Both the position numbers and the translations under genes were made by a program. Source: a virus (taxonomy: Duplodnaviria > Caudoviricetes). Taken from it: DNA of 64,000 bases. How positions within the stretch are numbered: the first letter of the stretch is position 1; each line of letters opens with the position of its first letter. Under the pieces are notes generated by a model. It had not been told where the DNA came from, did not search any database, and saw only the letters and a program-made list of their open reading frames with translations. The stretch covers positions 29 to 64,028 of IMG/VR virus record IMGVR_UViG_2880987659_000002, one strand, 5' to 3'. Of the stretch, positions 5,635 through 21,537 are shown one piece after another.

Positions 5635-5697
5635 AAGGGCGACAAACGTTGATCTAGCTTCTTCACGTTCCCCATGGCGTCTCCGGCAAGGAGACAC

Positions 5698-5931
5698 ATG
5701 GGATTGCGCGGGATTAAGCGGGATAAGGCGGGACGCGGCAAACAGCGAGCGAAGGCAAGGCGTGATACGTCAGGACTCTCCTACGCAGTTTATGATGGTC
5801 ACGTCCATCTGGGGACCGTTCTAGGACGACGTGCTGGCGGCTTCGACGCGCGCTCCGCAAGTGGTGGTCGCCTTGGCCATTTCGATTCGATCAAGGCGGC
5901 GGCCGATTGCGTTGGCCGAGGTGGCCAATGA
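5698..5931 (+). CDS. Small phage-type hypothetical protein
   Basis: AGGAG RBS before ATG 5698; ATGA-coupled to the next gene. Confidence 0.55.
   Translation: MGLRGIKRDKAGRGKQRAKARRDTSGLSYAVYDGHVHLGTVLGRRAGGFDARSASGGRLGHFDSIKAAADCVGRGGQ
5700..5734. repeat. Four GGGA(T) units at an exact 10-bp period
   Basis: G|GGATTGCGCG|GGATTAAGCG|GGATAAGGCG|GGAC. Confidence 0.6.
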
Positions 5932-6674
5932 GCGTCGTCTCGGCCGTGCACGTCATGCGAAACCGCGTTGATGCGGCCAGCGTGAAGGATCTGGATCTCG
6001 TCGCCCGTGATATGTGGCGGGCGCTGACACGAGGAGAAATCTCCGACGAGGAGGCCGCGGAGATCGATGCCCAGATCAGCGGTCGGCGCGAGAAGCACGC
6101 CTACTCACCCGTTCCAAATCGTCTTGTCCTGAGCAGATTCAAGCCTCGGCAGCGGCAGCGGTCGCCTGACCGGCAGGCGTCGCGCGACCGGCGGCGACGC
6201 CTGGGCGGTTCCAGTGTTCTGCCCGATAGCCTGCGCCATCATTACACCGAGGGGCAGCGCGCCGTTCTCTGCATCGTGGCAGGGGAGATCAAGCACCACG
6301 GCATCTGTGATCTCCCGATCGACAAGATAGCGGCGCTCGCAGGTGTGTGCCGGACTACGGTGCAGACGACGCTCCATGAGGCGCGGCGGCTCGGCCACAT
6401 CAGGATCACTCACAGGCCGCGGCGCGGCCAGAAGAGCCTCCCGAACCTCGTTTCGATTGTCTCGACGGCTTGGCTCGCCTGGTTGAAGCGTGGCCCCTCA
6501 GCTCACCGGCCGACAGGGTCCAGTTTGCTTTCGCCGGTCAAAAAAGTGAGCCCCACGAAGAGCATAGAGGGCCTTCAAGAAAGGGCATTGAGATCGACGA
6601 ATGCGCTCCAGGCACGGCAAGGAACGCTGGGGTTGGGGACAGATCCGCGTCGTGGAGGGCTGCAGCCTGAATGA
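5928..6674 (+). CDS. HTH protein, putative replication initiator
   Basis: CDLPIDKIAALAGVCRTTVQTTLHEARRLGHIRITHR HTH followed by a basic, low-complexity C-terminus. Confidence 0.6.
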   Translation: MSVVSAVHVMRNRVDAASVKDLDLVARDMWRALTRGEISDEEAAEIDAQISGRREKHAYSPVPNRLVLSRFKPRQRQRSPDRQASRDRRRRLGGSSVLPDSLRHHYTEGQRAVLCIVAGEIKHHGICDLPIDKIAALAGVCRTTVQTTLHEARRLGHIRITHRPRRGQKSLPNLVSIVSTAWLAWLKRGPSAHRPTGSSLLSPVKKVSPTKSIEGLQERALRSTNALQARQGTLGLGTDPRRGGLQPE

Positions 6675-6727
6675 GATCGCTTTCGAGGGGTTCGCTGCCC
6701 TCAAATACCGCCCAAACGCCTGGGATA

Positions 6728-6812
6728 GGGGGGGTGGTGCACGACCTCGGGCCTCGCATCAGGACCGGTGAGGTCCCGCCCGTGCGTGATATGCACCATA
6801 TGGTGTTTTTTC
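6728..6812. other. Candidate cos/packaging site
   Basis: G7-TGGT run, GACCGGT, perfect palindrome CACCATATGGTG (6794-6805) and a T-run; resembles cos regions of HK97-type phages by pattern only. Confidence 0.3.
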
Positions 6813-6926
6813 TGATGAAGGTCAAAAGGTTATTGGCTATTCGATGTTTAGTCAAGTTCTTTTTGGCATAAATTGGCACAAGCATCCGTCTAGATGCGGA
6901 GATTTACAAGGCGCATACAATTATGG

Positions 6927-8120
6927 ATGCGCAACCCATTCAAAGTGCTACGCGGCTTCTTCGACACAAAGTCTCTGGCGCTGCCGGAGGCCGATCTTCT
7001 TGCGCTGTTTGGCTCAGGCTCCCAGACTGCCGCCGGTGTAGCCGTTGGCCCCGGCAATGCGCTCACCGTGCCGGCGGTTGCATGCGCCATACGTGTCATT
7101 TCCGAAGCGGTCGCGACCCTTGATGTGCGTGTCGTCCAACGCGGAGACGACGGCACGGAACACGACGTTCCCGATCATCCTGCCTGGGCCTTGCTGCGCG
7201 ACGCTGCCAATGATTGGACGGACGCCTTCAGTTTCCTCCGTGACCTGACCGCTCAGGCGCTCATCTATGATGCTGGTGGGCTCGCATGGGTTAATCGCGT
7301 GGACGGGCGGCCTGTCGAGGTCATCCACTATCAGCCGAGCTACCTGACGGCGCAGGACGATGGCACGGGCACGGGTGCCTTCCGGTACACCCTGAACGGC
7401 CGGGATGTTCCGGCCGAAGATATCATTCACCTGAGGAGCCCCTTCGGCCGCTCTCCGCTCAGCCTCGCACGTGAGAGCATCGGGCTGGCCTTGACGTTGG
7501 ATGCCCACGCGGCCCGGCTGTTCGGCAACGGTGCCCGGCCCTCCGGCGTTCTGTCGCTGAAGGAGCGGGTTACGCCCGATGCGATCAAGCGCATTCGCGA
7601 TTCCTGGCAGCTCGCTCATGGCGGTGGAAAGTCCGGCGGCACGGCGATCGTGGAGGGAGGCGCCGAATACGCGCCCCTCACGATGTCATCCACCGACGCT
7701 CAATTCCTCGAGCTGACGCGGTTTCAGATTCTCCAGATCGCGCGTCATTTCCGTGTGCCCGTGACGATGCTCCAGGATCTGGAGCGAGCCACCTGGAGCA
7801 ACATGGAACAGGCTGGTCAGGAGTTCCTCGTCTATTGCCTTGAGCCGTGGCTGCGCGCCCTTGAGGGATGCCTCCGGCGTGCATTGTTCACAGCGGATGA
7901 ATTCCCTTCTCACCGAGTGGTTTTTGATCGCGATGACCTCACGCGCGCCGACATTGGAGCGCGTGCGACGGCTTACAGTTCGCTCATCGCGAGCGGCGTG
8001 CTGAACGCCAATGAGGCCCGGGCCTGGGAGGGACTGCCAGCCCGAGAGGGCGGCGATGCCTTTGGCAACCCCTTCACATCTACGCCTACCGGGGCCGCCA
8101 CGGTGCAGGGAGGCGCCTGA
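6927..8120 (+). CDS. Phage portal protein, HK97 family
   Basis: VPAVACAIRVISEAVATL, FGNGARPSG, DAQFLELTRFQILQIARHFRVP, NANEARAWEGL. Confidence 0.95.
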   Translation: MRNPFKVLRGFFDTKSLALPEADLLALFGSGSQTAAGVAVGPGNALTVPAVACAIRVISEAVATLDVRVVQRGDDGTEHDVPDHPAWALLRDAANDWTDAFSFLRDLTAQALIYDAGGLAWVNRVDGRPVEVIHYQPSYLTAQDDGTGTGAFRYTLNGRDVPAEDIIHLRSPFGRSPLSLARESIGLALTLDAHAARLFGNGARPSGVLSLKERVTPDAIKRIRDSWQLAHGGGKSGGTAIVEGGAEYAPLTMSSTDAQFLELTRFQILQIARHFRVPVTMLQDLERATWSNMEQAGQEFLVYCLEPWLRALEGCLRRALFTADEFPSHRVVFDRDDLTRADIGARATAYSSLIASGVLNANEARAWEGLPAREGGDAFGNPFTSTPTGAATVQGGA

Positions 8121-8623
8121 TGGATCGCGTGTTCATCGAGACCAAGATCATGGTGGACGATGCGGGCGCCATCGAGGGGCTTGCGTGGCCGTTCGGCACT
8201 CCTGACCGTATCGGCGACGTGATCGAGAAGGGTGCGTTTGCCGGCGCCCGCCTGCCCCTGCCCATGCTCTTTGGACACGATCCGAATGACCCCGTGGGCG
8301 CCTGGAGCGAGGCCTTGGAAGAGGCGGACGGCCTGCGTCTCAAAGGGCGCCTGCTGGTTGCGGAGGTCGCCAGGGCGCGCGAGGTCCGGGCGCTCGTCCA
8401 GGCAGGCGCCGTGCGCGGGCTCTCTATTGGTTTCCTCACGAAGAAAGCCACGCCCCGGAAGGGCGGCGGCCGGACCATCTCCGCGCTCGACCTGGTCGAA
8501 TGCTCGCTGGTCAGCGTCCCCATGCATCCCGGCGCCCGCATCACGGCCGCCAAATCCGCCACGGCGGCGCTTGCCATCGCCGGGGCTCTTCACCGCGCCG
8601 CTATGGCGATCAGCACGAGGTAA
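8120..8623 (+). CDS. HK97-family prohead protease
   Basis: GDVIEKGAF, MLFGHD..PVG (His), GLSIGF (Ser), LVECSLVSVPM. Confidence 0.93.
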   Translation: MDRVFIETKIMVDDAGAIEGLAWPFGTPDRIGDVIEKGAFAGARLPLPMLFGHDPNDPVGAWSEALEEADGLRLKGRLLVAEVARAREVRALVQAGAVRGLSIGFLTKKATPRKGGGRTISALDLVECSLVSVPMHPGARITAAKSATAALAIAGALHRAAMAISTR

Positions 8624-8626
8624 GCC

Positions 8627-9784
8627 ATGTTCCACGATGCGAAGGCGGTGCTCGGCGCCGTCGAGTTCAAGGGCGAGGAAGACGATCCCGCCGCCGTCGT
8701 CACGAAGGCGCTGGACGCCTTCAAGGGCGAGGTGATCGGCCGCCTCGACAAGGTGGAGGAAAAGGCTGGCGCCGCGGACAAGATCGCCCTGCGCCTGGAC
8801 AAGCTGGAGGCGAAGCTCAACCGGCCGGCCGGCACGAAGGACGATCCGGCGGAGCCGAGCGAAGAGCGCAAGGCGTTCGGCACCTACCTGCGCCGTGGGC
8901 GCGAGACGCCCGAGGCCGATCTGAAGGCGCTCACCGTCTCCAACGACTCCCAGGGCGGCTATCTCGCCCCTGCGGAGATGAGCACGGAGTTCGTCCGCGA
9001 CCTGGTGGAGTTCTCTCCCATCCGCTCCGTGGCCAGCGTGCGCGCCACCGGCTCGCCCTCGGTGAAGTATCCCAAGCGCACGGGCATCACCAACGCCCGC
9101 TGGGTCGGCGAGACCGAGGAGCGCTCCGAGAGCGAGCCCAGCTTTGGGCAGATCGAGATTCCGGTGCGCGAGGTGGCCACCTATGTGGACATCTCCAACC
9201 AACTCCTCGCGGACAGCGGCGGCATCGCCGAAGCTGAGGTGCGGCTCGCCCTGGCCGAAGACTTCGGCCAGAAGGAAGGGGCGGCCTTCGTGGACGGGGA
9301 CGGCGTGAAGGAGCCCATGGGGCTCCTGACAGATCCCGGTGTCGAATTCACGCTGAACGGCCACGCCACCAACCTCTCCGCCGACGCGCTCATCAGCCTG
9401 ATGTACGCGCTGCCGTCCGCCTACCGGAACCGTGGCTCCTGGCTGCTCAACGGCACCACGCTCGCCACCATCCGCAAGCTCAAGGACGGGCAGAACAACT
9501 ACCTCTGGCAGCCGTCCTTCCAGGCCGGGCAGCCGGAGACCATCCTCGGCCGCCCGGTGGTGGAGGCCGTGGACATGCCTGACGTGTCCTCGGGCGCCTT
9601 CCCGATCATGTTCGGTGACTTCGCCACCGGCTACCGGATCGTGGACCGCCTGGCGCTGTCCATCCTGGTGAACCCCTATTCCCTCGCCACCACGGGGCAG
9701 ACCCGCATCCATGCGACCCGCCGCGTCGGCGCGGGCGTGGTGCAGGCGCGCGCGCTGCGCAAGCTCAAGATGGTGACGAGCTGA
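8627..9784 (+). CDS. Major capsid protein, HK97 fold with N-terminal delta domain
   Basis: Coiled-coil N-terminus, GGYLAPAEM, YLWQPS..GQPETILGRPV, FGDF..GYRIVDR. Confidence 0.95.
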   Translation: MFHDAKAVLGAVEFKGEEDDPAAVVTKALDAFKGEVIGRLDKVEEKAGAADKIALRLDKLEAKLNRPAGTKDDPAEPSEERKAFGTYLRRGRETPEADLKALTVSNDSQGGYLAPAEMSTEFVRDLVEFSPIRSVASVRATGSPSVKYPKRTGITNARWVGETEERSESEPSFGQIEIPVREVATYVDISNQLLADSGGIAEAEVRLALAEDFGQKEGAAFVDGDGVKEPMGLLTDPGVEFTLNGHATNLSADALISLMYALPSAYRNRGSWLLNGTTLATIRKLKDGQNNYLWQPSFQAGQPETILGRPVVEAVDMPDVSSGAFPIMFGDFATGYRIVDRLALSILVNPYSLATTGQTRIHATRRVGAGVVQARALRKLKMVTS

Positions 9785-9797
9785 GGAGATACGACCC

Positions 9798-10229
9798 ATG
9801 CGTGACCTTCACAGCAACATCGGCGTCATCGAGGCCATTCCGCCCGCGGTCTACGATGCGGACAACAGCCCGGCGGCCATCGACCTCCTCGGCTTCGACG
9901 CCGCCGAAATCGTCATCCATGTGGGGATCGGCGGCATCACGTTCACCGGGACGAACAAGATCGAGTTCGTGCTCTCCCACAGCGACGATGAGAGCGCTTA
10001 CGCTCCCGTCACCGTGTCCGATCTTCTTGGTGTCGCGTCGGTGACGAACGGCATCGTCCTGGCCTTCAAGACGGCGCATGCCGCCGCCACGCTTCATCGC
10101 CTCGGCTACATCGGCGGCCGGCGCTACCTGAAGCTCCTGGCGGACTTCGGCGGCACCCACGGCACCGGCACGCCGCTTTCGGCGACGGTCATCAAGGGCC
10201 ACGCCGCCAGCCGGCCCGTCGCAGCTTAG
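9798..10229 (+). CDS. Putative capsid decoration/cement protein
   Basis: Beta-rich 143-aa ORF directly after the capsid gene (AIDLLGFDAA, GYIGGRRYLKL); AGGAG RBS; function inferred from position. Confidence 0.55.
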   Translation: MRDLHSNIGVIEAIPPAVYDADNSPAAIDLLGFDAAEIVIHVGIGGITFTGTNKIEFVLSHSDDESAYAPVTVSDLLGVASVTNGIVLAFKTAHAAATLHRLGYIGGRRYLKLLADFGGTHGTGTPLSATVIKGHAASRPVAA

Positions 10230-10423
10230 GGCGCCTGTCCTTTGAGGGGGCGTCGCGGTCCCCCCAACACCGGAAAGTTCGCCTGCCTGGCGCCCGCGGT
10301 GCAAGCCGTTTGTGGGGTTCAAGGCGAACGAGATCGCGGGCACCGGCGGATGTTTCCTAGTCCGCGAAGGGCTTAACGGGGAGGCGGGCCGTGCTCGCCT
10401 CCCCACACTCCAGGTGAAAGAGC

Positions 10424-11251
10424 ATGCCTGTTCGTGCCCCAAGGATTTGCCCCTGCGGCTACCGCATCGCCAGCGGCGAGCGATGCCCATGCGAGCGCAA
10501 GCGCGCGGCGGCTCGGAATGCTCGGGCGGATGCCGCCCGCCCCAGCGCGCGGCAGCGAGGCTATGACACCCGCTGGGACAAGGCGCGTGCTGGGTATCTG
10601 CGGTCACATCCCATGTGCGTCCGGTGCCATGCGCCGGCCACGGTGGTTGACCACATCGCGCCTCACCGCGGCGACCAAGCGCTTTTCTGGGACAAGGGAA
10701 ACTGGCAACCGCTTTGCAAGCCTTGCCACGACCGAGCGAAGCAGGGCGAGGAAAAGCGGAGCGCGAGGGGTGGCGTACTGGCTCATCCCTTCCTTCGGCC
10801 GTCACGCGTCCCTGTCACCCTTGTCTGTGGTCCGCCGGGTTCCGGAAAGAGTACCTATGTCGAGAAGCATCGGCGTCCAGGCGATATCGTCATCGACTTG
10901 GACCTGATCAAGGCAAAGCTCTTCCACACCACCAGCCACCAGGCCCCTCGTAGCGCCGAGGCGACACGGCAAGCTCTGTTGGAGCGCAACCAGATCCTGA
11001 CGGGGCTCGCTGACGATCACCTGCATGAGCATGTGTGGTTTATCGTTTCAGCTCCCGAGCAGGCAGAGCGCGACCTGTGGCAGCGAAAGCTGCGCAATGC
11101 CCGTTTGGTCGTGATGGATACACCGCTGGAGGAGTGCCTACGCCGAATCCGGGCCGATGTAAGCCGCGAGGGACAGCGGGACTGGATGGAGGATCTGGTG
11201 CACCAATGGTTCGCGCGGGCGCGGCGCGAGAAGGATCTCCGCAATGTCTGA
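10424..11251 (+). CDS. HNH endonuclease (terminase-associated, HK97 gp74-like) fused to a C-terminal P-loop kinase/AAA domain
   Basis: RGYDTRW, CVRC..ATVVDHI.PHRG..LFWD..NWQPLCKPCH; then VCGPPGSGKSTYV (Walker A), IDLD, TPLEECLRR. Confidence 0.85.
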   Translation: MPVRAPRICPCGYRIASGERCPCERKRAAARNARADAARPSARQRGYDTRWDKARAGYLRSHPMCVRCHAPATVVDHIAPHRGDQALFWDKGNWQPLCKPCHDRAKQGEEKRSARGGVLAHPFLRPSRVPVTLVCGPPGSGKSTYVEKHRRPGDIVIDLDLIKAKLFHTTSHQAPRSAEATRQALLERNQILTGLADDHLHEHVWFIVSAPEQAERDLWQRKLRNARLVVMDTPLEECLRRIRADVSREGQRDWMEDLVHQWFARARREKDLRNV

Positions 11252-11555
11252 CAGCCTCAATGCCACGGACGTGGTGAGCCTTGATGATCTGAAGCGCCAT
11301 CTTCGGGTGGATGGGTCGTATGAGGATTCGACCCTTGAGCAGATGCTTGAGGCCGCCCTGCGGCATGTGGAGGCCTGGGTCGGGCCGCTCGCCACCTTCG
11401 AAGGTGAGGTTCCTGATGACATCGGGATGGCGATGAAGGTGCTCGTCGGCCACTGGTTCACAGAAGGGCGGGAAGCTGCACTCCCGGAACCTCTCCTCGA
11501 GATCCCGTTCGGATTTCGTGAGCTCATCACTCCCTATCGCAAGTGGGAGTTCTGA
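11244..11555 (+). CDS. Head-tail connector, HK97 gp6-like
   Basis: VSLDDLKRHLRVD, AMKVLVGHWF..RE, IPFGFRELITPYR. Confidence 0.88.
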   Translation: MSDSLNATDVVSLDDLKRHLRVDGSYEDSTLEQMLEAALRHVEAWVGPLATFEGEVPDDIGMAMKVLVGHWFTEGREAALPEPLLEIPFGFRELITPYRKWEF

Positions 11556-11557
11556 TC

Positions 11558-11980
11558 ATGCGTGGCCATAAAGCCGAAATATCTCCGACCTGGGAGGCGG
11601 TGGGTGAGGACGTTCCCGCTGCGCCGGATTGGCTGACCGACGATGCCCTGGCCGAATGGGAGCGCACGCTGCCGATCCTGATGAAGGAGCGGCGTACACT
11701 GACCCTTGCGGATCTCGCGAGCTTCGCGAATTACTGCACAGCCGTGGGGCAGGTTGCCGAGGCGGCCCGTATTCTCAAGGACGGCGGGCTGATCTTCATG
11801 GGGCCGAGCGGTCCCAAGCGGCATCCGGCTGTGGTCATTCGGAGCGACGGGCTCACGCAGGCGCGGCAGCTTGCTGCCGAACTCGGCCTCACGCCGGCAA
11901 GCCGCGGGCGACCTGGTATTCGGGAGGGGGCTGATAGCGATCTGGGGCCCCTTTTCTCTGGGGGACTTGGCCTTGATTGA
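11558..11980 (+). CDS. terS: Terminase small subunit, P27 family
   Basis: APDWLTDDALAEW, LANYC-like FANYC, KRHPAV, AAELGLTPASR. Confidence 0.88.
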   Translation: MRGHKAEISPTWEAVGEDVPAAPDWLTDDALAEWERTLPILMKERRTLTLADLASFANYCTAVGQVAEAARILKDGGLIFMGPSGPKRHPAVVIRSDGLTQARQLAAELGLTPASRGRPGIREGADSDLGPLFSGGLGLD

Positions 11981-13544
11981 GCAGAGTACCCCTGACCCTC
12001 TTGGATATGGTCAGCGGGCCGTCGATTTCCTCCGAGCGCTCCGTCACCCGAAAAGCGGATTGCCGGGACGGGCATTCCAACTGGACCCTTGGCAGGAGCG
12101 GATCGTGCGCCGGATTTACGGCCCACGCCACGAGAATGGCTTGCGGATCGTGAAGTCCGTGGTGCTACTGCTGCCCCGAGGCAATCGAAAGACGAGCCTC
12201 GCCGCTGCTCTCGCACTACTTCATACCTTTGGTCCCGAGCGTCTGCCGGGCGGCGAGGTCATTTCCGCCGCTTCAGACCGCAAGCAGGCCCGCATTGCGT
12301 TTGATGAAGCGGTCGGCATCACTCAAACGACACCGGGGCTGAAGCAGCGTGTTTCGGTCCTGGAGTATCGGAATCGCGTCGTCAATTCGAAGTATCGCGT
12401 CTTTTACGAGTCCATCTCCAGTGACGCGGGCACACAGCATGGCCGCACGCCGGCATTCGTCCTGGCGGACGAGCTCCACGCCTGGAAGCGACGAGACCTC
12501 TGGGACGTGCTGCGCTCCGGCCTCGTGAAGACCGCCGGCTCCTTGCTGGTCGTTGCCACCACTGCCGGTCGCGGGCAGGAGAACATCGCTTTCGACATTG
12601 TGGACTATGCGCGGAAGGTGGCGCGCGGAGAGATCTCAGATCCCTCGATGTTGCCCATTCTCTATGAAGCGGATCGCGATTGTGACTGGACGGACGAGGC
12701 CGTATGGCACGCGGTCAATCCGGGCCTCGCCCATGGGTATCCCGACATCGAAGGTCTGCGTCAGCTCGCCCGTGAGGCGCGCCATCGCCCGGGAGATCGG
12801 GAGGCATTTCGTCAGTTGAACCTCAATGTCTGGCTCGACCACAGCGCCGATCCGTTCGTGGATATGGCCATCTATGACGAGGGTGCTGCGCCAGTCAGCC
12901 TGGATGATCTAGCTGGCGAGCCGTGTTGGCTCGGCGTCGATCTCTCCAGCAACGGCGATCTGACCTGTGTCGCGGCGGCCTGGCGTGACGGCGACGATGG
13001 CTATTTCGTCCATCCTTGGTTCTTCTGCCCGAAGGACAATCTGCGCCTCAGGTCGGAGCGCGATGGCGTTCCGTATGTCACATGGGCCGAACAGGGCTAC
13101 ATCGAGCCCACCCCTGGAAATGTCGTGGACTTCCGGCATGTGGAGACCACCATCCGCGACTTATGCGACCGCTTCGATGTGCGTGAGATAGCCTTCGATC
13201 CGCACCTCGCGCGCAACATGATGAACACTCTCGCCGAAGACGGCCTGCCGGCAGTGGAGATGCGCCAGGGCGTGGCCACCATGGCGCCAGCCGTGAAGGA
13301 ACTGGAGCGGGCGATTGTCGGCCGGCGGCTGATGCACGGCGGCCATCCTGTGCTGCGCTGGAACTTCGACAATATCGCTGTCCACACTGATAGCGCTGGC
13401 AATGCCGTGTTCCACAAAGGGCGAAGCCGGGACCGTATCGATGGCGCCGTGGCTTGCGCTATGGCAGTCGCTCGTGCGGCGGCCGGCTCCCTCCCGTCGA
13501 TCTATGACAGCGATCAGTGGAAGCCAGAGATGATGGTGATGTAA
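11973..13544 (+). CDS. terL: Terminase large subunit
   Basis: LDPWQ, PRGNRKT Walker A variant, LADELHAW Walker B, GVDLSS..D nuclease motif, RIDGAVA; TTG start overlaps the terS stop. Confidence 0.95.
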   Translation: MIEQSTPDPLGYGQRAVDFLRALRHPKSGLPGRAFQLDPWQERIVRRIYGPRHENGLRIVKSVVLLLPRGNRKTSLAAALALLHTFGPERLPGGEVISAASDRKQARIAFDEAVGITQTTPGLKQRVSVLEYRNRVVNSKYRVFYESISSDAGTQHGRTPAFVLADELHAWKRRDLWDVLRSGLVKTAGSLLVVATTAGRGQENIAFDIVDYARKVARGEISDPSMLPILYEADRDCDWTDEAVWHAVNPGLAHGYPDIEGLRQLAREARHRPGDREAFRQLNLNVWLDHSADPFVDMAIYDEGAAPVSLDDLAGEPCWLGVDLSSNGDLTCVAAAWRDGDDGYFVHPWFFCPKDNLRLRSERDGVPYVTWAEQGYIEPTPGNVVDFRHVETTIRDLCDRFDVREIAFDPHLARNMMNTLAEDGLPAVEMRQGVATMAPAVKELERAIVGRRLMHGGHPVLRWNFDNIAVHTDSAGNAVFHKGRSRDRIDGAVACAMAVARAAAGSLPSIYDSDQWKPEMMVM

Positions 13545-13567
13545 GTGTCGAAATTACAATCCATAAT

Positions 13568-15211
13568 TTATTCATCATTTCTCTTATGCTGAAAATAAGC
13601 AGATGTATCTTCGACTTTTTTCTTTAATTGATTCAATAAAGCTCGCTCTGCTATTGAGTATGATGGGTAGTAAACCTCAACCATTGGCTTTGGTGCGCCG
13701 CCGGTCCACTTTTGCGCTTCGCCCGTAGAGTATTTTCGTTTTCCTTTTTCAAATAAATCACGATATCGATACGGGGATACGCCAATAAATCCGTCAAATC
13801 CAACGCGATTAATCTGTGGCTTGGAATCTGTATAAATTGCATCACCATGCAAATCTTTCGCATAGCTCTTTGGGTATGGCTCTAAATATACAACACGAGA
13901 TATGCCGGCGGCGACAATGTGTTTTGCACACATATGGCATGGAAAAGTGGTGCAATATAGCGTGCTGTCTTTTATGGGGATCCCCAGCCTAGCAGCGTCG
14001 CTAATGGCGGACATTTCTGCATGTATAATTCTACCAAACTCAAGTATATCCATCATTTTAGATTTTCTAACACTGCGATCAGACGTGTCCTGAAGTAAAT
14101 TTTGACAAATTTCGTATGTATTATTTATTTCAGATAGATTTTCAGATAAATGACCAGATTCTTTTAATCTATCTATCACGTCAACAAGTAATTCGATCTT
14201 CCGACGCTCATTTGGGTCGTATCCGTCCACGAAATCGCGCCTGTCTATAGTATCTTTCGTCCAGTACGTGCCGCCACCGGCCTTCGGAACCTCATTGCAT
14301 CCCAATGACGCAACCTCACCCGAGGGGCGAAATATTGCCGCTCCGACTTGCCTTGAAAGGTCAGATGACCTTAGCGAGGCTGACTTTGCCATGTACATCC
14401 CATATTCGTCCCGAGTGGGTGTAATTTCATTATTTCCAAAAAGTAATTTTATGAATCTTCGGATTGTATCGGAGCATTCCGAAGTTGAACTTGCGTCGAT
14501 AAATACATCTCCGAGCGGAAAAGCATCACGTACGTTCTGCCCATGTGTGTCCAGTGTCTCTTTAGAATCCTGGGCGACCAATCGATTGGCGCGGTCAACT
14601 AGTTCTATTTCTGCGACTAGGCCCCCGCAAGATCTGCTTTCTTCTTCCCGAATGCGTCTAAGTCGAGACTCTTCCGACGCAGTTGCGGAAATAAGAATAA
14701 ACTGCCGTCCATATATGCTTCGCAAAACCGTTATTTCTTCAGGCCTCTTAAATTGCCTTATGATGTAAGCCTGATTTGGAAGGGGCTCTGCTTTATTTCG
14801 CTCGTCGTCATTGGAGGCATCGTGCCGTTCTCCATCTGATCCAGCAGGGGGCTGCGCCATGCCTTGTTTCTGCTGAGCATCTTGAATTTTCGCTTTCCAT
14901 CTCTTGGCTCGGAATTCCCGGATCGCGCTGATAGCCAATGCCGCAAGGGCGTGGTCGCCCGCCTGAGCTCTAACGTCATTTGCGAATGCAATTCGATCTT
15001 TAATTGATTGGATATATGGGCTTTTAGCCACGGTCCTTTCGGGGAAAGCATCCTGCATCAAGGCGGTGAGACGAAATAGCTGCGTCTCGTACTGCATCTC
15101 TGTTAGCGCCTCCGCCAGGAGATCACTGACCAAATTCAGGTCGACTCCGATGGGTGCGACAATTCCAAAAATCAACTCAGGCGCGGGTGTGGATTGCAAC
15201 GGTTGGTTCAT
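13568..15211 (-). CDS. Anti-phage-type dCTP/dCMP deaminase with N-terminal P-loop-like domain (AvcD/Dcd-like)
   Basis: ELIFGIVAPIGVDL N-terminus; RSSDLSRQVGAAI, GCNEVP, HAE and TTFPCHMC zinc deaminase motifs, YLEPYPKS; more AT-rich than the neighbours. Confidence 0.88.
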   Translation of the reverse strand: MNQPLQSTPAPELIFGIVAPIGVDLNLVSDLLAEALTEMQYETQLFRLTALMQDAFPERTVAKSPYIQSIKDRIAFANDVRAQAGDHALAALAISAIREFRAKRWKAKIQDAQQKQGMAQPPAGSDGERHDASNDDERNKAEPLPNQAYIIRQFKRPEEITVLRSIYGRQFILISATASEESRLRRIREEESRSCGGLVAEIELVDRANRLVAQDSKETLDTHGQNVRDAFPLGDVFIDASSTSECSDTIRRFIKLLFGNNEITPTRDEYGMYMAKSASLRSSDLSRQVGAAIFRPSGEVASLGCNEVPKAGGGTYWTKDTIDRRDFVDGYDPNERRKIELLVDVIDRLKESGHLSENLSEINNTYEICQNLLQDTSDRSVRKSKMMDILEFGRIIHAEMSAISDAARLGIPIKDSTLYCTTFPCHMCAKHIVAAGISRVVYLEPYPKSYAKDLHGDAIYTDSKPQINRVGFDGFIGVSPYRYRDLFEKGKRKYSTGEAQKWTGGAPKPMVEVYYPSYSIAERALLNQLKKKVEDTSAYFQHKRNDE

Positions 15212-15323
15212 GGCTACGGCTGCATCCTTGAGCTATGACACTCGGGAACGGAAAACGTGATTTGCGTGTTACCGAACTAGCGAGTCCACTCGGTAAAAGG
15301 GCGAGTCATACGAGGGGAATCAG

Positions 15324-15518
15324 ATGGCAAACGAAGTCCGGTTACCTCAAGGCTGGTTTGTGGAAGACGTCCGGGGGGCGGCTGCCCGGCACAGCGAGTG
15401 GTCTAACTCCAGCCCCAGCACGATAATTCGCTCTGTTCAGCTTCAGCAAGCGTCATCGCAACCTAGTAGGTCAACACCTCAGCTTACTAGTACGCGGAAC
15501 CCAAATACAACTCGGTAA
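15324..15518 (+). CDS. Small protein divergent from the deaminase
   Basis: GAGGGG RBS; ordered N-terminus MANEVRLPQGWFVEDVRGAAARHSEW followed by a Ser/Thr/Gln/Pro-rich tail. Confidence 0.5.
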   Translation: MANEVRLPQGWFVEDVRGAAARHSEWSNSSPSTIIRSVQLQQASSQPSRSTPQLTSTRNPNTTR

Positions 15519-15967
15519 GCTAAGGCTTAAGCCGGGCGAGGCCGTCTGCGCAGGCCATTTCGGTGTTAGTCGGGATGGTGGTAGGCAGATGCATGATATG
15601 CATCTGCCTTTTAGCGGCTTGGCTATGTCTTAGAAGGGTGCCCCTTCTATCGCCAATCGCACTGAACACCCATAGCAGGCACGCAGTCCTCACCACCCTG
15701 GACAGTTCCCCAAATCTTCTTAGACGAAGACCGATGATGTGCGCGCATCGATGGGCCGTGCCAGACCATATAAGTGCATCGCCTGTTTCACGGGAAATCA
15801 GTGAAACACATTGATTTTGAAAGAGATTTCGCATGCCAGGAAAGATGAGGGCGCCCCCATCTTATTATTGCTCCCTGCGCGCCCTGCCATCCGGGTATGA
15901 AGATCGTTCCAGCCATTAGGATGAACCCGAAGATGATTTGCGTGTGTCCTGACTCGAATTACGTAAT

Positions 15968-16243
15968 TTAGTTATTTGTATATCGACTCATATGCGCGTA
16001 TTCGCCTAATTTTTCTCTCTCTAAGATTAGAGTAATATATGAATTGTCTGGAGAAAAATTGATATCAAACGCCCGATCTACAACTTTATATCGCTCAGAC
16101 ATTCCACTTTTGTTGAAATACATAATCGAATCACCAATTGATGGAATATGTCCATTAAAATAAGAAGAATGAAAATCTTCGCCATCGTCGATCAGTTTAT
16201 CGCCGGAACGAAGGAATATCCTCACATTTACGTCTGAATTCAT
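15968..16243 (-). CDS. AT-rich orphan protein (91 aa)
   Basis: GGAGGGGG RBS; much lower GC than the element. Confidence 0.7.
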   Translation of the reverse strand: MNSDVNVRIFLRSGDKLIDDGEDFHSSYFNGHIPSIGDSIMYFNKSGMSERYKVVDRAFDINFSPDNSYITLILEREKLGEYAHMSRYTNN

Positions 16244-16545
16244 TTCCCCCTCCGAGGTAGATTTTCCAATATAGCGACCTTGTCATTCTAATTTTCGGTC
16301 CGCCACCATTTTTTTAGACGAAATCCACACCATCTTCTTCTAGAGTGCGCTAGGTGACTTCGGGTGTCTGCGGCTTAGACCCTCGCCAAATTCAAACGCG
16401 ACGTAGTCGCCGCTTAAGCCCGAAGTTCGGATGCTGGATCGCGAATGTGCACGCGCGCTCCGACTCGCTTTGCGCAACCATCCTAGCGTAGGCTGCGCCG
16501 TTACACGCGATTTGAAGTCAGGCAGTTCCTCCTGGAGCCTGGTCC

Positions 16546-17079
16546 ATGAGCCAAGACGATGACCGGCCGCCTCGGCCCCCTTTAACCGTCGTCGCTCAGA
16601 ACGACGATCGCGCGATCCGACTGGAGGGCGTCAAGCAGGCGCTGGAGGCGGATTTGAGGGCGCTCGCCGCTAACGTGATGCGTGTCGCGCGAGGGGCTGG
16701 GAAGGCTTACGAGATCGGGCGGCAGTGCAAGGCCGTCGCCGGCCGATTTGAGGAGTACAGATCGGTAGCAGGTCATTACCCGCCCACTCACGAAATAGAT
16801 GCGGCAATTGCGATCCGGAGGGAGATCCCGAGCGCGGCCTCGGATCGAGAGTATGAACGGAGTCGGGGAATTGACACCGTCATGAGGGGTGCACTGCAAG
16901 CCGCCGCTTCTCATCTTGTGGGGCAGCGGACGCAGGAGGCGGCAGGGGAGACGCAGCTACTCGAAGGTGTCCGAATTCTGGAGAAGCTCCGAGAGGAAAA
17001 CCGGAGGGAGGCTGTGTCTCGAAAAGAGAGAGAAGATGCCTTTGAAAAATGGAAGTCTGAGCGTGATCGCAAGAAGTAG
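16546..17079 (+). CDS. Hypothetical helical protein
   Basis: GGAG RBS; plausible helical composition. Confidence 0.65.
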   Translation: MSQDDDRPPRPPLTVVAQNDDRAIRLEGVKQALEADLRALAANVMRVARGAGKAYEIGRQCKAVAGRFEEYRSVAGHYPPTHEIDAAIAIRREIPSAASDREYERSRGIDTVMRGALQAAASHLVGQRTQEAAGETQLLEGVRILEKLREENRREAVSRKEREDAFEKWKSERDRKK

Positions 17080-17106
17080 ATGACCTATTGCGATTTGGTT
17101 GATGAT

Positions 17107-17577
17107 TTATATATCGGCGCCGCATCCAGGGTCTGTGACAAGCTCGATGCCCGCGCTCGCAAAGATGGTCCTTATAGTACGCTCGTCCAGGTCCGGATCT
17201 CGCTTTAGGCGGCCGGCGGAAGTGCGGCTGAGCTTTTGGTAATCAACGAAAACGAGGGTGATACCGTTCGCAGGAAGATGGAGACGCCGCCGCTCGTCAT
17301 AACGCCTCCGCTGCTCTCCCCGATGGACTCCGCTGACCGTCATACGGTGGGGTTTGTCGAAGTGAGTCACAGCGCGGGTGTGTTGAGCCTCGTGATACTC
17401 GACCGCCAGGTTGAGCGTGGGATAGAAGGCATCGACCGGCAAGCGAGCGCACCTGCCACCTTTCCCAGGGTCTCCCAACAGGAAGTCGAACCGCTTCTGC
17501 CGCTCCGACGTTAGACCAAGCACGCGATCGCAAAGGTGCAGAACGTAGGCTTCATCGCTATCAGCACGGCGGGCCAT
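17107..17577 (-). CDS. PD-(D/E)XK / Vsr-like nuclease family protein
   Basis: RLPVDAFYPTLNLAVEYHEAQH (D...ExxxxxH) and YDERRR..L..NGITLV fit a restriction-endonuclease-like fold. Confidence 0.6.
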   Translation of the reverse strand: MARRADSDEAYVLHLCDRVLGLTSERQKRFDFLLGDPGKGGRCARLPVDAFYPTLNLAVEYHEAQHTRAVTHFDKPHRMTVSGVHRGEQRRRYDERRRLHLPANGITLVFVDYQKLSRTSAGRLKRDPDLDERTIRTIFASAGIELVTDPGCGADI

Positions 17578-17583
17578 GATAGC

Positions 17584-17811
17584 TCAAGACGCCTTCTTAA
17601 GGCGGACGCCAGCGCCGCCGCCGTTCTCTGCGATGAACTCCACGCCAGCCTCTTCCAGCGCGCGCTGGATGGCTTCCACGGTCCGCGGCTTCAATTCCTC
17701 GCCAGCCTCCAGGCGGGAAATTGTGTTGGTGGAGACCCGGGCTTTCTCCGCCAGCTGTCTCACACTCAGCCCCAAGCCCGCTCGGGCCATCTTGCACTGT
17801 TCTGGTGTCAT
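17584..17811 (-). CDS. XRE-family HTH regulator (putative satellite repressor)
   Basis: MTPEQCKMARAGLGLSVRQLAEKARVSTNTISRLEAG ... ALEEAGVEFIAENGGGAGVRL. Confidence 0.9.
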   Translation of the reverse strand: MTPEQCKMARAGLGLSVRQLAEKARVSTNTISRLEAGEELKPRTVEAIQRALEEAGVEFIAENGGGAGVRLKKAS

Positions 17812-17826
17812 TTGTTCGAAATCGCG

Positions 17827-17862
17827 TTGACGTTGCGATTTTGTTAACCTAAGAATCGCAAC
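17827..17862 (+). promoter_or_regulatory. Divergent promoter with operator-like inverted repeat
   Basis: TTGACG-N17-TAAGAA overlapped by the inverted repeat GTTGCGATT (17832-17840) / AATCGCAAC (17854-17862). Confidence 0.6.
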
Positions 17863-17900
17863 ATAATCTCGTTTTCGCAATCTAACATTGGAGCGCACCG

Positions 17901-18398
17901 ATGCCCATGCATTCCGGTGAACAGGAGTCCTTTGTCCGCCCGCCGTCCCGTCGCGTTGTTATGGCTGGAGCTGCGGCACTCGCTCTTGCCCCGGCTGTGG
18001 CCGGCGCCACATTCGCGATGTCTGCGGAAATGCGAGATCCGGTCTTCGCTGCAATAGAGCGCCACCATCTTGCATACGCCGCCCTCCAGGAAGCGGATGT
18101 CGCCGAGGATGCGTGTGACGCCCCGTTTGGCTCAGTGGAGATGAGGGAGCTCGAGGAGGCCGGCTACAACGCCTTTTGTGCTGAGCAGGATGCATTCGAG
18201 GCTCTTGCGCGCACCGCCCCAAGCACCGCGCTCGGCCTTTCTGCCTGGGTCACTCATCTCGTGTCCAACAGGAATCGCTTCAGCCCGGCAGACGTGGTCG
18301 AGGATGAGGGGGAGGTGCCTTTGGTGATTGTGCGGGACATGCTGAAGGCTGTTCAGGACTTTGCTGAGCGCGCGCGAGGGGTGGGACCATCAGCGTGA
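17901..18398 (+). CDS. Hypothetical protein with N-terminal hydrophobic (Tat-like) stretch
   Basis: GGAG RBS; SRRVVMAGAAALALAPAVA followed by DPVFAAIERH. Confidence 0.65.
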   Translation: MPMHSGEQESFVRPPSRRVVMAGAAALALAPAVAGATFAMSAEMRDPVFAAIERHHLAYAALQEADVAEDACDAPFGSVEMRELEEAGYNAFCAEQDAFEALARTAPSTALGLSAWVTHLVSNRNRFSPADVVEDEGEVPLVIVRDMLKAVQDFAERARGVGPSA

Positions 18399-18450
18399 AG
18401 GGTGCCATATCCGAGATTGACCCCGGCGCTGGCCTAAGGGTGGTTTCTCC

Positions 18451-18505
18451 CGTGTGCGGAAGGTTTGCGCGCTTAGGGCAGCGGTCTTGAAAACCGCCCC
18501 ATACG
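18451..18505 (+). ncRNA. Candidate C4/CI-like antisense RNA
   Basis: Closing stem CGTGTG/CATACG, hairpin TGC..GCA presenting CTTAGG, hairpin GCGGT-CTTGAAA-ACCGC; complementary repeats upstream (18427-18447) and downstream (18531-18549); TTGACC at 18417. Confidence 0.5.
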
Positions 18506-18729
18506 CGCGAGGCGGCAGACGGGGGTGCATCTGGCCTAACGGCGTTTTCTTTTGGCCTCGGCGCTGTGCGCTGATTGGAGTGGAGGCCACTCTCCACTTC
18601 CTTCTCGATAAGGGGATTTGGGACGCAACAACGAAGCGATCGTAAGGGCTGCGCTGGCGTTCGTTGATCAAGGCGCGATGCCCGGGAGTTGAGGCTGCCC
18701 ATCTAGCCTCCCTCGCCTGCGAAAAACCA

Positions 18730-18758
18730 TTGCCCCTCCGTTTTTGTTTTGGTAAATT
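18730..18758 (+). promoter_or_regulatory. Putative sigma70-type promoter
   Basis: TTGCCC-N17-TAAATT, followed by an AGGAGGT RBS for the gene at 18781. Confidence 0.5.
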
Positions 18759-18780
18759 CAAAACATAAAAGGAGGTCAAG

Positions 18781-19485
18781 GTGGCGTCAGTTTCCCAGGC
18801 AGTCGAGGCCATATCCGTGGTGACGATGACGGAGGAGAAAACCGTCAACGTCTACGCTCGCGCGCTGATCGATGCTGGCGTCTTACCCAAGAGCCGGGGG
18901 CGAGCTATTGCACATGTCCGCGGCGAACACGTTGCCAAATTGTTGCTCGCCATCGCCCTTAAGCCGACAATCAAAGAAGCTGCAAAAGTAGTTGAGGCCT
19001 ACTCCGAACTAGAGGCAGAGACTAATTATGGAATTGTTACTGCAATAGAAATTCTCTCTGATCTCTTCGGAGCAGCCTCCGCTGGAGGGGTCTCTAGCAA
19101 TTTTTGGCACGAAGTGACCTTCAGCGTCTACGAAAATAGGTTGGGTATTGACGTTCGACTTCCCGCCGGTCGCCGATCGAATCGATCTGATCGGGAGCTT
19201 ATTTTCCGACTTGGCGGGATGGGCGACCTCGGCCCCTTCGAGGACGTTGCAAAATTCTTCATCAGCCCCAACAGATTTTTCTCGCGGAGTGCTACCGTCA
19301 GCTTCGATGCACTATTATTCATCTGCCAATTGATGAAAGCAAATGCACCAAATGCGACGGCGCAGGGTGAAGAAGCGGTGCAGCGCCTTCTAAGCACCTT
19401 CCAAACTAAACTCTCGGAAGACGGGCACCGCAACTTGAGCACCTTTAAGAGCTGGCAGTCCGAGGGGGGTGACAGTCATGACTAG
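18781..19485 (+). CDS. Hypothetical protein with HTH-like N-terminus
   Basis: Strong RBS; VNVYARALIDAGVLPKSRGRA..HVAKLLLAIAL. Confidence 0.7.
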   Translation: MASVSQAVEAISVVTMTEEKTVNVYARALIDAGVLPKSRGRAIAHVRGEHVAKLLLAIALKPTIKEAAKVVEAYSELEAETNYGIVTAIEILSDLFGAASAGGVSSNFWHEVTFSVYENRLGIDVRLPAGRRSNRSDRELIFRLGGMGDLGPFEDVAKFFISPNRFFSRSATVSFDALLFICQLMKANAPNATAQGEEAVQRLLSTFQTKLSEDGHRNLSTFKSWQSEGGDSHD

Positions 19486-19678
19486 CATGAGCAGATCGCC
19501 TTCTGTTCTCCGCGGGGCCAAGCAGATCGCGCACGAGCTCGGCGTCTCTGTGCGCACGCTCCACCGCCAGATTAAGGCGGGCAAGGTGCCGGTCGAGAAG
19601 GGTGGGTGTGGCGGCAAGACCTCCTTCCTTCTCCTCGATCGCACTGCTTTGTCCTCCAATTCCCAGAAGAAGGACTGA
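19478..19678 (+). CDS. Small HTH DNA-binding protein (excisionase/AlpA-like)
   Basis: LRGAKQIAHELGVSVRTLHRQIKAGKVPV. Confidence 0.7.
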   Translation: MTSMSRSPSVLRGAKQIAHELGVSVRTLHRQIKAGKVPVEKGGCGGKTSFLLLDRTALSSNSQKKD

Positions 19679-19682
19679 GACC

Positions 19683-19946
19683 ATGGCTCGGCGCCCTTCA
19701 GATCCCATGCGCAATCAGGGCGACTTCCCCTGCGAGGCGGAGATCGCCCGGCGTCTGAGCCAGGGCCCGAAGGAGTGGGCTGCGGCTGCGATCATTCTGG
19801 AGCGTGAGGGCCTTCCCCGCGTGGACGCGCTCATGGGCGGGCGCTATTGGCCGGCCGTTCAAGAGTTCTTCCGCCGTCGATACGGCCTCTCTAACCTTCA
19901 GGTCTCGCAACCTGATGGGATGGAGAATCTCAATGCCCTCCGATGA
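19683..19946 (+). CDS. Small winged-helix protein upstream of the integrase (possible directionality factor)
   Basis: EAEIARRL..W...ILEREGLPRVDALMGGRYWPAVQEFF; overlaps the int start. Confidence 0.65.
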   Translation: MARRPSDPMRNQGDFPCEAEIARRLSQGPKEWAAAAIILEREGLPRVDALMGGRYWPAVQEFFRRRYGLSNLQVSQPDGMENLNALR

Positions 19947-21537
19947 GTTCGATGCGCCGGGATTGAAGGTCCGGCGCAATAAAGACGGGACGGCCCGGCT
20001 CTATTGGGTCGCCCGCGCCGATATCCGCAAGGCGGGCTATGAGCCCGAAACGGTACGCCTGCATTACGACCTTCACGATCCCCGGGATCGCCTGCTGATC
20101 GAGATGAAATGCAAGTGCCTCCAGGCGGAGATGTTTGCCTGGCGCGCCGGAAAGCGGGATCTGCAGCGGCCGTTCGATGGCACCCTCGCGAGCCTCGTTC
20201 GCCTGTATCAGACCGACGCTGCGTCGCCCTACCGGTTGGTGAAGCACAACACGCGCGAGACGTATGACCAGGTGCTTCGCCTGATTGAATTGGCCTTTGG
20301 GAAGCGGGTTCTGGTGAACCTTGCTCTGGGCGATTTCCGCCGCTGGTATGACGAGGCGAAGAAGCCCAAGGCCGCCGGCTGTCCGGAACGGGTTCGCAAA
20401 GCACACGGCATCATCAGCATGCTCCGGCGTCTGTTCGCTTATGGGACTGCCGCGGAATATGCGGGATGCGATCGCCTCGCGGGCATTCTGGAGGCCACGC
20501 GCTTCAAGCAGCCGAAGCGGCGGCGCATCCGGATGGAGCTTCACCACCTGCAAGCCTTCATTCCCAGGGCGATCGAGGCCGGACGCCTGTCGCTGGCCCT
20601 CGGCACTGCCATCCAGTTCGAGACGGGCATGCGCCAGAAGGATGTCATCGGCGAGTGGGAGCCTCACGAGGCCATCTCCGAAGTCGGGGACATGATCCTT
20701 CTCAGGGGCAAGCGTGGCCGGCGTGTCCTGCGCTGGGTGAACGGTCTCACCTGGGCTGACCTCGCCGGGGGTACCGTGCTCGTTAAGGAGACGACGAAGA
20801 CAGGGGCGATGGTCGCCAATGATCTCGCGAACTCTCCCTTGCTGCTCGACCTGATCGAGCGAGTGCCGCTGCCGGCGCGTGTAGGTCCGCTCATCGTCGA
20901 TGAGTCGGCGGGCCGCCCCTACGCGAAGCATGCCTACGCTCGCGAATGGCGGGTGATCGCCCGCGCGGCGGGCATCCCTGACCAAGTATGGAATATGGAC
21001 GCCCGAGCGGGCGCCATTACCGAAGCCGAAGACGCAGGGGCTGATCTCGATCAGATCCGCGGTGCCGTCGGTCATACGCAGGCTTCGAGCACGGCCCGCT
21101 ATTCGCGCGGGGCGCTCGGGAAGAGCCGCAAGGTCGCCGAACTCCCAAAGCGCGCAAAATCGCGTGTCACCGTGCGCAGGATCAAATGTCACCCGCGCGA
21201 CGGTTCTCTTGAAGGTGGTTTTCAGGGGGCTGTGACCGACCTGAACGGGGGATCAATTGGTGCCCTCTCGCCGCCGCCGCCGAAGCTCTGCCATATTCAG
21301 CCGCACCTGCTCTCGCCGTTCGGGCGTCGCGCCGTAAGCGGCCTGATAGGCCCGATGCTCCGGGCTTGTAGAGCGCGGCGATCGCGCTGCATCCACCTTT
21401 CGCCAGCGCTCGCGCTCGCGCTCCACATAGTCGGGATCGAGCGCCTTGCGCACCGTGTAGAGGCTGCACCCGACAGCTTCGGCGATCCTGCGCAGGCTCA
21501 AGCTGCCCTCAGCGTGCAAGCGACGGATGCGGGCTAG
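19933..21537 (+). CDS. int: Tyrosine integrase of element 2; native C-terminus apparently replaced at ~21143 by read-through into the Mu-like end
   Basis: ETGMRQKD (R), NMDARAG (HxxR variant), VGHTQ (H), ARYSR (Y); low-quality sequence after KSRKVAEL. Confidence 0.8.
   Translation: MPSDEFDAPGLKVRRNKDGTARLYWVARADIRKAGYEPETVRLHYDLHDPRDRLLIEMKCKCLQAEMFAWRAGKRDLQRPFDGTLASLVRLYQTDAASPYRLVKHNTRETYDQVLRLIELAFGKRVLVNLALGDFRRWYDEAKKPKAAGCPERVRKAHGIISMLRRLFAYGTAAEYAGCDRLAGILEATRFKQPKRRRIRMELHHLQAFIPRAIEAGRLSLALGTAIQFETGMRQKDVIGEWEPHEAISEVGDMILLRGKRGRRVLRWVNGLTWADLAGGTVLVKETTKTGAMVANDLANSPLLLDLIERVPLPARVGPLIVDESAGRPYAKHAYAREWRVIARAAGIPDQVWNMDARAGAITEAEDAGADLDQIRGAVGHTQASSTARYSRGALGKSRKVAELPKRAKSRVTVRRIKCHPRDGSLEGGFQGAVTDLNGGSIGALSPPPPKLCHIQPHLLSPFGRRAVSGLIGPMLRACRARRSRCIHLSPALALALHIVGIERLAHRVEAAPDSFGDPAQAQAALSVQATDAG
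21143..21208. repeat. Three degenerate repeats at a 22-bp period (candidate transposase end-binding sites)
   Basis: TCCCAAAGCGCGCAAAAT (21143), TGTCACCGTGCGCAGGAT (21165), TGTCACCCGCGCGACGGT (21187). Confidence 0.55.

Follow-up and report, generated by a model that had tools for sequence, protein, structure and literature searches.

The stretch of DNA analyzed here, hereafter the window, comprises 64,000 nucleotides of the IMG/VR virus record IMGVR_UViG_2880987659_000002 (positions 29 to 64,028) and corresponds to positions 277354-341353 of contig C2 of the host genome (G000). It harbors an integrated element, occupying window positions 5635-21145 plus about 115 bp found past a nested Mu-like prophage, which measures approximately 15.6 kb without this insert and which an earlier reading of the sequence, the original prediction, had described as a tailless capsid-forming satellite resembling the phage-inducible chromosomal islands that form capsids (cf-PICIs). 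The gene content and coordinates then assigned to positions 5635-21142 hold when genes are called with Pfam, PHROGs and PADLOC (Table 1), and both ends are real, as judged from a 49-nt direct repeat and from the junction preserved in a remnant copy. The element encodes a complete set of HK97-type head proteins, an HNH endonuclease, both terminase subunits and an integrase, and no tail, lysis, primase or helicase family was matched within positions 5635-21145 in Pfam, PHROGs, PADLOC and NCBIfam scans.

Table 1. Features of the integrated element and of the sequences at its two ends (window coordinates; L-numbers designate individual relatives)
Feature	Position	Strand	Assignment and support
attL	5586..5634	-	49 nt identical to the 3' part of tRNA-Gly(CCC), anticodon loop to CCA
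Small conserved open reading frame (ORF), 85 aa	5674..5931	+	homologs at the same position: L002 59%, L006/L083 44%, L102 53%
Helix-turn-helix (HTH) protein, 255 aa	5907..6674	+	phrog_15967 7e-57; weak HTH_36 below cut-off
Portal	6894..8120	+	PF04860 2.5e-90; 70% identity to L083 ortholog; dN/dS 0.22
S78 prohead serine protease	8120..8623	+	PF04586 1.5e-21; dN/dS 0.19
HK97-fold major capsid protein	8627..9784	+	PF05065 2.5e-84
Bbp16-like cement/decoration protein	9798..10229	+	phrog_5707 4e-16; Pfam Bbp16 0.002, below cut-off
Conserved non-coding stretch, ~170 bp	10235..10400		aligns with the HNH-upstream region of L001, L006, L008, L016
HNH endonuclease + P-loop kinase-like (AAA_33) fusion	10424..11251	+	PF01844 + PF13671; phrog_4581 5e-53 spans both halves
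gp6-type head-tail adaptor	11244..11555	+	PF05135 1.4e-7; phrog_40 'head-tail adaptor Ad1' 4e-22
Small terminase, TerS (Terminase_4 / P27 family)	11543..11980	+	PF05119 3e-20
Large terminase, TerL	11871..13544	+	TerL_ATPase + TerL_nuclease (PF03354, PF20441); dN/dS 0.12
dCTP-deaminase anti-phage defence gene	13568..15211	-	PADLOC dCTPase 4e-158
Variable region, small ORFs of 69-234 aa	15520..19678	both	no family assigned
Tyrosine integrase, not P4-type	19804..21145	+	phrog_1 1.7e-17; 61-63% identity to intact 461-aa X. autotrophicus ortholog
Nested Mu-like prophage, not part of the element	21146..64000, on to window-equivalent 64313	-	43,168 bp

The left attachment site has an identical 49-nt counterpart at C2 341787-341835 (window-equivalent 64434-64482), at an intact tRNA-Gly(CCC) gene (C2 341791-341865, window-equivalent 64438-64512) that starts 438 bp past the window end, and no whole tRNA was found by ARAGORN inside the window. 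Since the tRNA lies on the minus strand and its 3' fragment is displaced, the fragment represents the left end of an insertion running rightward to the intact gene. The two are now separated by 58.8 kb, of which 43,168 bp correspond to the Mu-like prophage. The right end of the element core at about position 21142 is equally real, for a remnant copy fuses window positions 20973-21145 straight to positions 64314-64458. This remnant, 313 bp in length, is located at C2:246157-246469, 31 kb left of the window, and derives from a third satellite of this type that was integrated earlier. It comprises the integrase 3' end along with the arm on the attR side and 22 nt of tRNA sequence; its identity to the element in the window is 95-98%, and it keeps the junction free of the Mu-like prophage. 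Comparison of the three junctions reveals a 5-bp target duplication, ACTCC, at positions 21141-21145 and 64314-64318. The Mu-like insertion took place 11 codons before the integrase stop codon and 3' of the catalytic tyrosine, which is consequently kept, and upon removal of the insert the integrase frame ends in KVAELRQAHRAGQNKA followed by the stop codon, matching the intact 461-aa ortholog of Xanthobacter autotrophicus.

Within the head module, the decoration gene foreseen by the original prediction is borne out by a profile of 13 orthologs, which matches a capsid decoration protein of solved structure, 8cjz_B (7e-5), and the cementing protein of BPP-1, 3j4u_H (1e-3); in 13 of 14 bounded elements this gene directly follows that of the capsid. 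The conserved non-coding stretch that follows it and the homologous regions of relatives have a GGGGTCAAGGCGG block and a GC hairpin in common, and this stretch is a candidate cos or late regulatory site. The fusion of the HNH endonuclease to a kinase-like domain, previously regarded as a peculiarity, is real and its kinase half is present in none of the 80 genome relatives examined, yet the whole protein matches an existing phage family, phrog_4581. The gp6-type adaptor is the sole neck gene. The start codon of TerL is uncertain, as the likeness to relatives, with identities of up to 84%, starts near codon 39.

Upstream of the portal gene, relatives encode primases/helicases (AAA_25, VapE, Prim-Pol and DUF3987), and in this replication-module slot the window's element has the HTH protein, whose neighbors in the protein atlas are HTH_36 proteins. 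It is a candidate initiator, a role that is plausible but unproven; around its gene no iterons were detected beyond short, weak repeats. The 85-aa ORF that precedes it has no family match in Pfam, PHROGs or NCBIfam and is possibly an excision or regulatory protein, and no AlpA-like protein is recognizable in the element. Downstream of terL, the dCTP-deaminase gene, with a local G+C content of 46-53%, is defence cargo lying in the slot that holds a tape-measure-like gene in many relatives. The small ORFs that separate it from the integrase have no Pfam, PHROG, PADLOC or NCBIfam match, except for a weak, below-cut-off hit to WS_DGAT_cat on 16546-17079, and only scattered, partial homologs in relatives. 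For these ORFs and for the HTH protein, NCBIfam and PDB sequence searches were empty and the protein atlas returned only HTH_36 neighbors or unnamed clusters. A C4-like RNA formerly proposed at positions 18417-18600 was not upheld, with no Rfam match at E<=1, a fold z-score of -1.53 and 15 of 200 shuffled sequences folding as well.

The element belongs to a large group. A capsid-based scan of one genome per species yielded 150 relatives and a similar search of IMG/VR yielded 236, the best 80 of each being examined. The capsids of the best 80 of the 150 genome loci are 57-81% identical to that of the window, and their hosts are Xanthobacter, Azorhizobium, Ancylobacter, further Hyphomicrobiales, Azospirillum and a large number of Rhodobacterales. 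All 80 genome loci and all 80 IMG/VR loci keep the order portal-protease-capsid-(cement)-HNH-(neck)-terS-terL. Thirteen of the genome loci have a tRNA gene and a direct repeat of 28-57 nt at their borders, involving at least nine different tRNA genes, and measure 10.5-18.6 kb, which is too small for a classical tailed phage with these head genes. In addition, two metagenomic contigs among the IMG/VR relatives, of 17,056 and 17,292 bp (L107, IMGVR_UViG_3300037601_000017, and L115, IMGVR_UViG_3300001605_000437) have terminal overlaps of 127 and 95 nt, respectively, which look like circular assemblies and hint at free or replicating forms of about 17 kb.

A syntenic element at tRNA-Gly, the search for which had been recommended at the outset, was found in X. 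autotrophicus DSM 431 (L083). This ortholog, 16.2 kb in length, sits in the identical tRNA-Gly(CCC) site, is flanked by the same 49 nt, keeps the gene order, and shares with the window's element the integrase type, the HTH protein and the small upstream ORF, at protein identities of 44-81%; its integrase is intact, 461 aa long and adjoins the tRNA. It differs in having a 783-aa tape-measure-like gene after terL, an HNH gene without the kinase half, other cargo and no Mu insertion. The chromosomal flank is syntenic between the two genomes, with 75% nucleotide identity. Comparison of the two elements gives ratios of nonsynonymous to synonymous substitution rates (dN/dS) of 0.12-0.38 for the genes of portal, protease, capsid, TerL and integrase, and the head and packaging genes are under purifying selection. 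A TerL match is found in 15 of 120 other species of the host's taxonomic family and in none of three congeners, and some genomes carry two copies. This spread and conservation is the pattern of an active mobile family, not of a decaying prophage or of a fixed domesticated cluster. The slot between terL and the integrase differs among relatives. An MmeI-type restriction-modification gene and a Panacea-domain antitoxin are also encoded somewhere within bounded relatives. One further record, L088 (MW091529.1, 'Bacteriophage sp. 103231', 18 kb), looks like an RcGTA-type gene transfer agent (GTA) cluster followed by chromosomal efflux genes and not like a phage genome.

Shaft and neck genes were sought by batch scans of the non-core ORFs of bounded elements, followed by per-protein scans. 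Between HNH and terS many relatives carry a major tail protein (phrog_158, 1e-22), Neck1/tail-completion (phrog_5), Tail_completion_gp17 and Phage_HCP genes, and after terL many have a tape-measure-like protein of 600-900 aa (phrog_10574, down to 1e-140) together with a tail chaperone. An iterative search detected a tape-measure-like ORF in 47 of 80 genome loci, including that of X. autotrophicus (1e-93), whereas neither the iterative search nor a homology check found such a gene or a remnant of it in the window's element. The expectation that close relatives lack tail genes in this position thus stands only in part; the tail-bearing relatives are nonetheless 15-19 kb in size and no tail-tip or fibre gene was recognized in them. 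The fullest ones (L017, L034, L046, L083, L121, L142 and others) are whole contigs or bounded elements of 16-19 kb, and apart from a few isolated matches no distal-tail, tip, fibre or lysis gene was recognized in these long relatives; with an integrase, regulators and replication genes included, this length leaves no space for them. Head-only variants, without tube, extra neck or tape-measure-like gene, number at least 11 among the genome loci and about 10 among the IMG/VR loci, and in the capsid tree head-only and shaft-bearing variants are intermixed, even within the Xanthobacteraceae clade. The number of such loci identifies the head-only condition as a recurrent state, and 'tailless' describes the window's variant and not the family as a whole.

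Based on these observations, we consider it likely that the element belongs, as a head-only variant, to a large family of capsid-forming, satellite-like elements that integrate at tRNA genes of Alphaproteobacteria, and it most likely works in the manner of a cf-PICI; as far as sequence analysis reaches, the earlier proposal of a tailless, cf-PICI-like satellite of a distinct lineage is supported. By analogy with cf-PICIs, the integrase would excise the element when a helper phage develops, and the HTH protein would start its replication. The portal-to-terL block would then build small HK97-fold heads stabilized by the cement protein, a small capsid being suited to a length of about 15-19 kb, while TerS, TerL and the HNH endonuclease would cut unit-length element DNA from a cos-type site and package it. 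Finally, gp6 would cap the portal, and stopper, tail and lysis functions would be provided by the helper.

Several observations weigh against this proposal. The presence of tube, neck and tape-measure-like genes in many relatives means that the head-only state could reflect loss and not design, and about 4 kb of small ORFs are left without family assignment. Only one neck gene, gp6, is present, where the cf-PICI EcCIEDL933 of Escherichia coli O157:H7 encodes head closure as well. With a changed integrase tail and attR displaced by 43 kb, the copy may be dead. Moreover, the only tail sources found in the host genome are the nested Mu-like prophage and an RcGTA-type cluster, and no helper can be named. 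The GTA was considered as a general helper and discarded, as two of five other element-bearing genomes have no match to GTA_TIM, and a 'long' relative acting as helper in the same genome was likewise discarded, with no tube or tape-measure homolog found elsewhere in the host genome.

Among the alternatives, the element could be a non-functional deletion derivative of the long members, in which the tube, neck and tape-measure genes were lost and the tape-measure slot was overwritten by low-G+C cargo, the remainder being in decay. The tape-measure-like gene directly after terL in the same-site ortholog, the frequency of such ORFs in the genome loci and the low G+C content of the window's cargo are in agreement with this, as is the nearest capsid relative (L001), which has tube, Neck1, tail-completion and head-closure genes. 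On the other hand, head-only variants are spread over several capsid-tree branches and have retained every head and packaging gene at full length, no tape-measure pseudogene is left in the window's element and its remaining genes are under purifying selection; we regard this explanation as unlikely. Even less probable, in our opinion, is a remnant of an ordinary tailed HK97-like prophage deprived of the modules for tail and lysis. Its head and packaging genes would fit, being of the ordinary HK97 type, and the nearest isolated phage, RHph_X2_25, is a normal siphovirus of 68.7 kb; however, exact attachment repeats delimit an element of 15.6 kb in the window and elements of 10.5-18.6 kb in 13 relatives, the order portal..capsid..HNH..terS-terL in 160 of 160 relatives contrasts with HNH-terS-terL-portal in the reference phages, and a full tail module was seen in none of the relatives examined.

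There is equally little probability that the element is an autonomous, very small virus or a helper-free element whose tail and exit functions went unrecognized among the small ORFs. The unassigned ORFs and the tube, chaperone and tape-measure-like proteins encoded by long relatives would leave some place for it, but no unassigned ORF reaches 235 aa or has a match to a tail or lysis family, and even the long relatives, two of which (L121 and L142) are whole contigs of 16.8 kb, are without space for distal-tail, tip, fibre and lysis genes. Finally, a domesticated, vertically inherited GTA-like particle producer, suggested by the shared tRNA-Gly locus in two species with a flank 75% identical and a divergence about that of the element core, is hardly credible for an element that has its own integrase, attachment repeats, replication-slot gene, TerS, TerL and HNH, varies in cargo and sites, is absent from three of three congeners and, across the taxonomic family, from 105 of the 120 other species, and resides in a genome already provided with a separate RcGTA-type cluster.

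Regarding the satellite interpretation favored here, the state of the copy in the window deserves attention. Because the attachment sites now enclose 58.8 kb and the integrase tail has been replaced, this copy is probably no longer excisable and packageable as a unit fitting its own head, and it probably represents a recently immobilized satellite with its other genes intact. The nested prophage encodes MuA, MuB, DUF3164, an endolysin, TerL, a portal, a MuF-ADP-ribosyltransferase fusion (already noted in the original prediction), a capsid, a terminator, a tube, a tape measure and a J-like protein; it looks complete and of siphovirus type, and its ends, read on the plus strand, are 5'-CA...TG-3', in contrast to the TG...CA of Mu. 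Beside the attachment sites of the satellite, a GGGAT(T/A)A motif recurs about every 10 bp near attL (window 5700-5740) and GGGGAACG is present three times near attR (window-equivalent 64360-64395), periodic motifs which may be arm-type sites of the integrase.

To the left of attL lies a separate island of about 36.5 kb (window 1-5585, extending leftward to C2:246469), which forms with the element and the remnant copy a tandem array at tRNA-Gly. A P4-type integrase at 4216-5439 on the minus strand was considered as the integrase of the element and rejected, since it lies outside attL and adjoins the tRNA fragment in the canonical manner for the left island, to which it therefore belongs; the designation of the element's own integrase as non-P4 was correct. 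A 91% identical paralog of this P4-type integrase is found beside tRNA-Arg(CCT) on contig C16. Elsewhere, the RcGTA-type cluster at C1:1416879-1431570 encodes TerL, portal, protease, capsid, gp6, head closure and a 1314-aa GTA_TIM protein, and it is the only HK97-type head/neck set beside that of the satellite in the host genome, which is 99.9% complete.

The distribution of shaft and neck genes allows us to propose, tentatively, that the family represents a series of graded helper dependence, from members with a head only, through members that add a neck, to those that also have a major tail protein, a tail chaperone and a tape measure, without a recognizable distal-tail, tip, fibre or lysis gene, and all within 15-19 kb. 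Shaft-bearing members would then form chimeric virions, taking from a helper only the tail tip or baseplate and the lysis functions, and shaft and neck genes would come and go repeatedly as one cassette. As a bolder corollary of such a series, a gene transfer agent could be the tail donor in hosts like that of the window, in which an RcGTA-type cluster is the sole HK97-type source of neck and tail detected.

Capsid-forming satellites have so far been described mainly in Enterobacteriaceae, Pasteurellaceae and Firmicutes. Our literature search, in which the SatelliteFinder host lists (PMC10085698) were not covered, found no report of them in alphaproteobacterial taxa, including Xanthobacteraceae, other Hyphomicrobiales and Rhodobacterales. 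The family described here comprises at least 150 genome loci and 236 IMG/VR loci and carries defence cargo between terL and the integrase. Its range, from a head only to head, neck, tube and tape measure, offers a natural series for distinguishing the parts that a satellite must own from those it can borrow, and the behavior of the tube, neck and tape-measure genes as an optional cassette is in our view the most interesting lead. The satellite idea is testable, since cultured strains such as X. autotrophicus DSM 431 harbor intact relatives.

When compared with known systems, the element comes closest to the cf-PICIs. The cf-PICI model of SatelliteFinder has 11 core components and forbids tail and holin genes (PMC10085698). 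The window's element has its own capsid, protease, portal, HNH, TerS and TerL and no tail or holin gene, whereas many of its relatives, with tube and tape-measure-like genes, depart from the model on this last point. Regarding adaptor and closure functions, the gp6 adaptor is present and a Phage_HCP-type head-closure gene is not found in the element, the only match in the genome being in the GTA cluster; as for integrase, regulator and replicase, the integrase is of another type and cut by the Mu-like prophage, no AlpA-like match exists and an HTH protein, not a primase, is in the replication slot. The gene order had been taken as unusual, and it does differ from that of the reference phages; however, proteobacterial cf-PICIs have their morphogenetic genes first, followed by hnh-terS-terL (Alqurainy et al., 10.1101/2022.09.08.507074), and hence the order is a likeness to these satellites and not a difference.

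The annotated order of EcCIEDL933 is int, HTH, DUF927 replication gene, capsid, protease, portal, head closure, connector, HNH, P27-family TerS and TerL. Both elements are about 15 kb long, and have an integrase, a replication slot, a full head set and a gp6-type connector; in both, the far end is occupied by HNH, P27-family TerS and TerL, genes for tail and lysis are lacking and no isolated phage is a close relative. They differ in that identities are low (capsid 28-32%, portal 34%, TerL 28%, HNH 44%), that portal-protease-capsid in the window stands against capsid-protease-portal in EcCIEDL933, and that the window's element has the HTH protein in place of a DUF927 primase-type gene, no recognizable AlpA and an extra cement/decoration gene. 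Furthermore, its integrase is of another type, is located at the far end beside the tRNA and targets a tRNA gene.

An ordinary temperate HK97-like prophage would have tail, lysis and lysogeny modules, the order terS-terL-portal and a genome of more than about 30 kb; the element has 15.6 kb between its attachment repeats when the Mu-like insert is left out of account, another gene order and neither tail nor lysis genes. Among 50,697 phage records the best matches reach 38.5% identity for TerL and 34-44% for the capsid, and the best capsid match, the normal siphovirus Rhizobium phage RHph_X2_25, has the order HNH-terS-terL-portal-protease-capsid-...-tail. RcGTA-type agents likewise have portal, protease, capsid, gp6 adaptor and head-closure families of HK97 type, the capsid and protease of the host's own GTA being 36% and 46% identical to those of the element, respectively; unlike the element, which is mobile and patchily distributed, they have no integrase, attachment sites or replication gene, and show the order terL-portal-...-tail with a full tail. 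The EPIPs of Mycolicibacterium, satellites reported to encode a tape measure (PMC12822802), resemble those many family members, the window's copy not among them, in which capsid genes are combined with a tape-measure-like gene, but they are actinobacterial, use a serine integrase and have a listed gene set without portal, protease and large terminase.

In capsid and TerL trees, which had been called for at the start and were built with FastTree and only four phage references, the alphaproteobacterial elements form one clade, except for a divergent TerL (L065), with RHph_X2_25 as sister and EcCIEDL933 outside. RHph_X2_25 and a Streptococcus phage are nearer to the family than EcCIEDL933, and descent with the EcCIEDL933 clade is not supported. 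This suggests, as an indication and not as proof, that the alphaproteobacterial family is a lineage separate from EcCIEDL933 which took up a phage head module on its own. Three origins of this kind have already been published, and a separate origin from the E. coli elements, if true, would provide a further case of phage head and packaging modules turned satellite.

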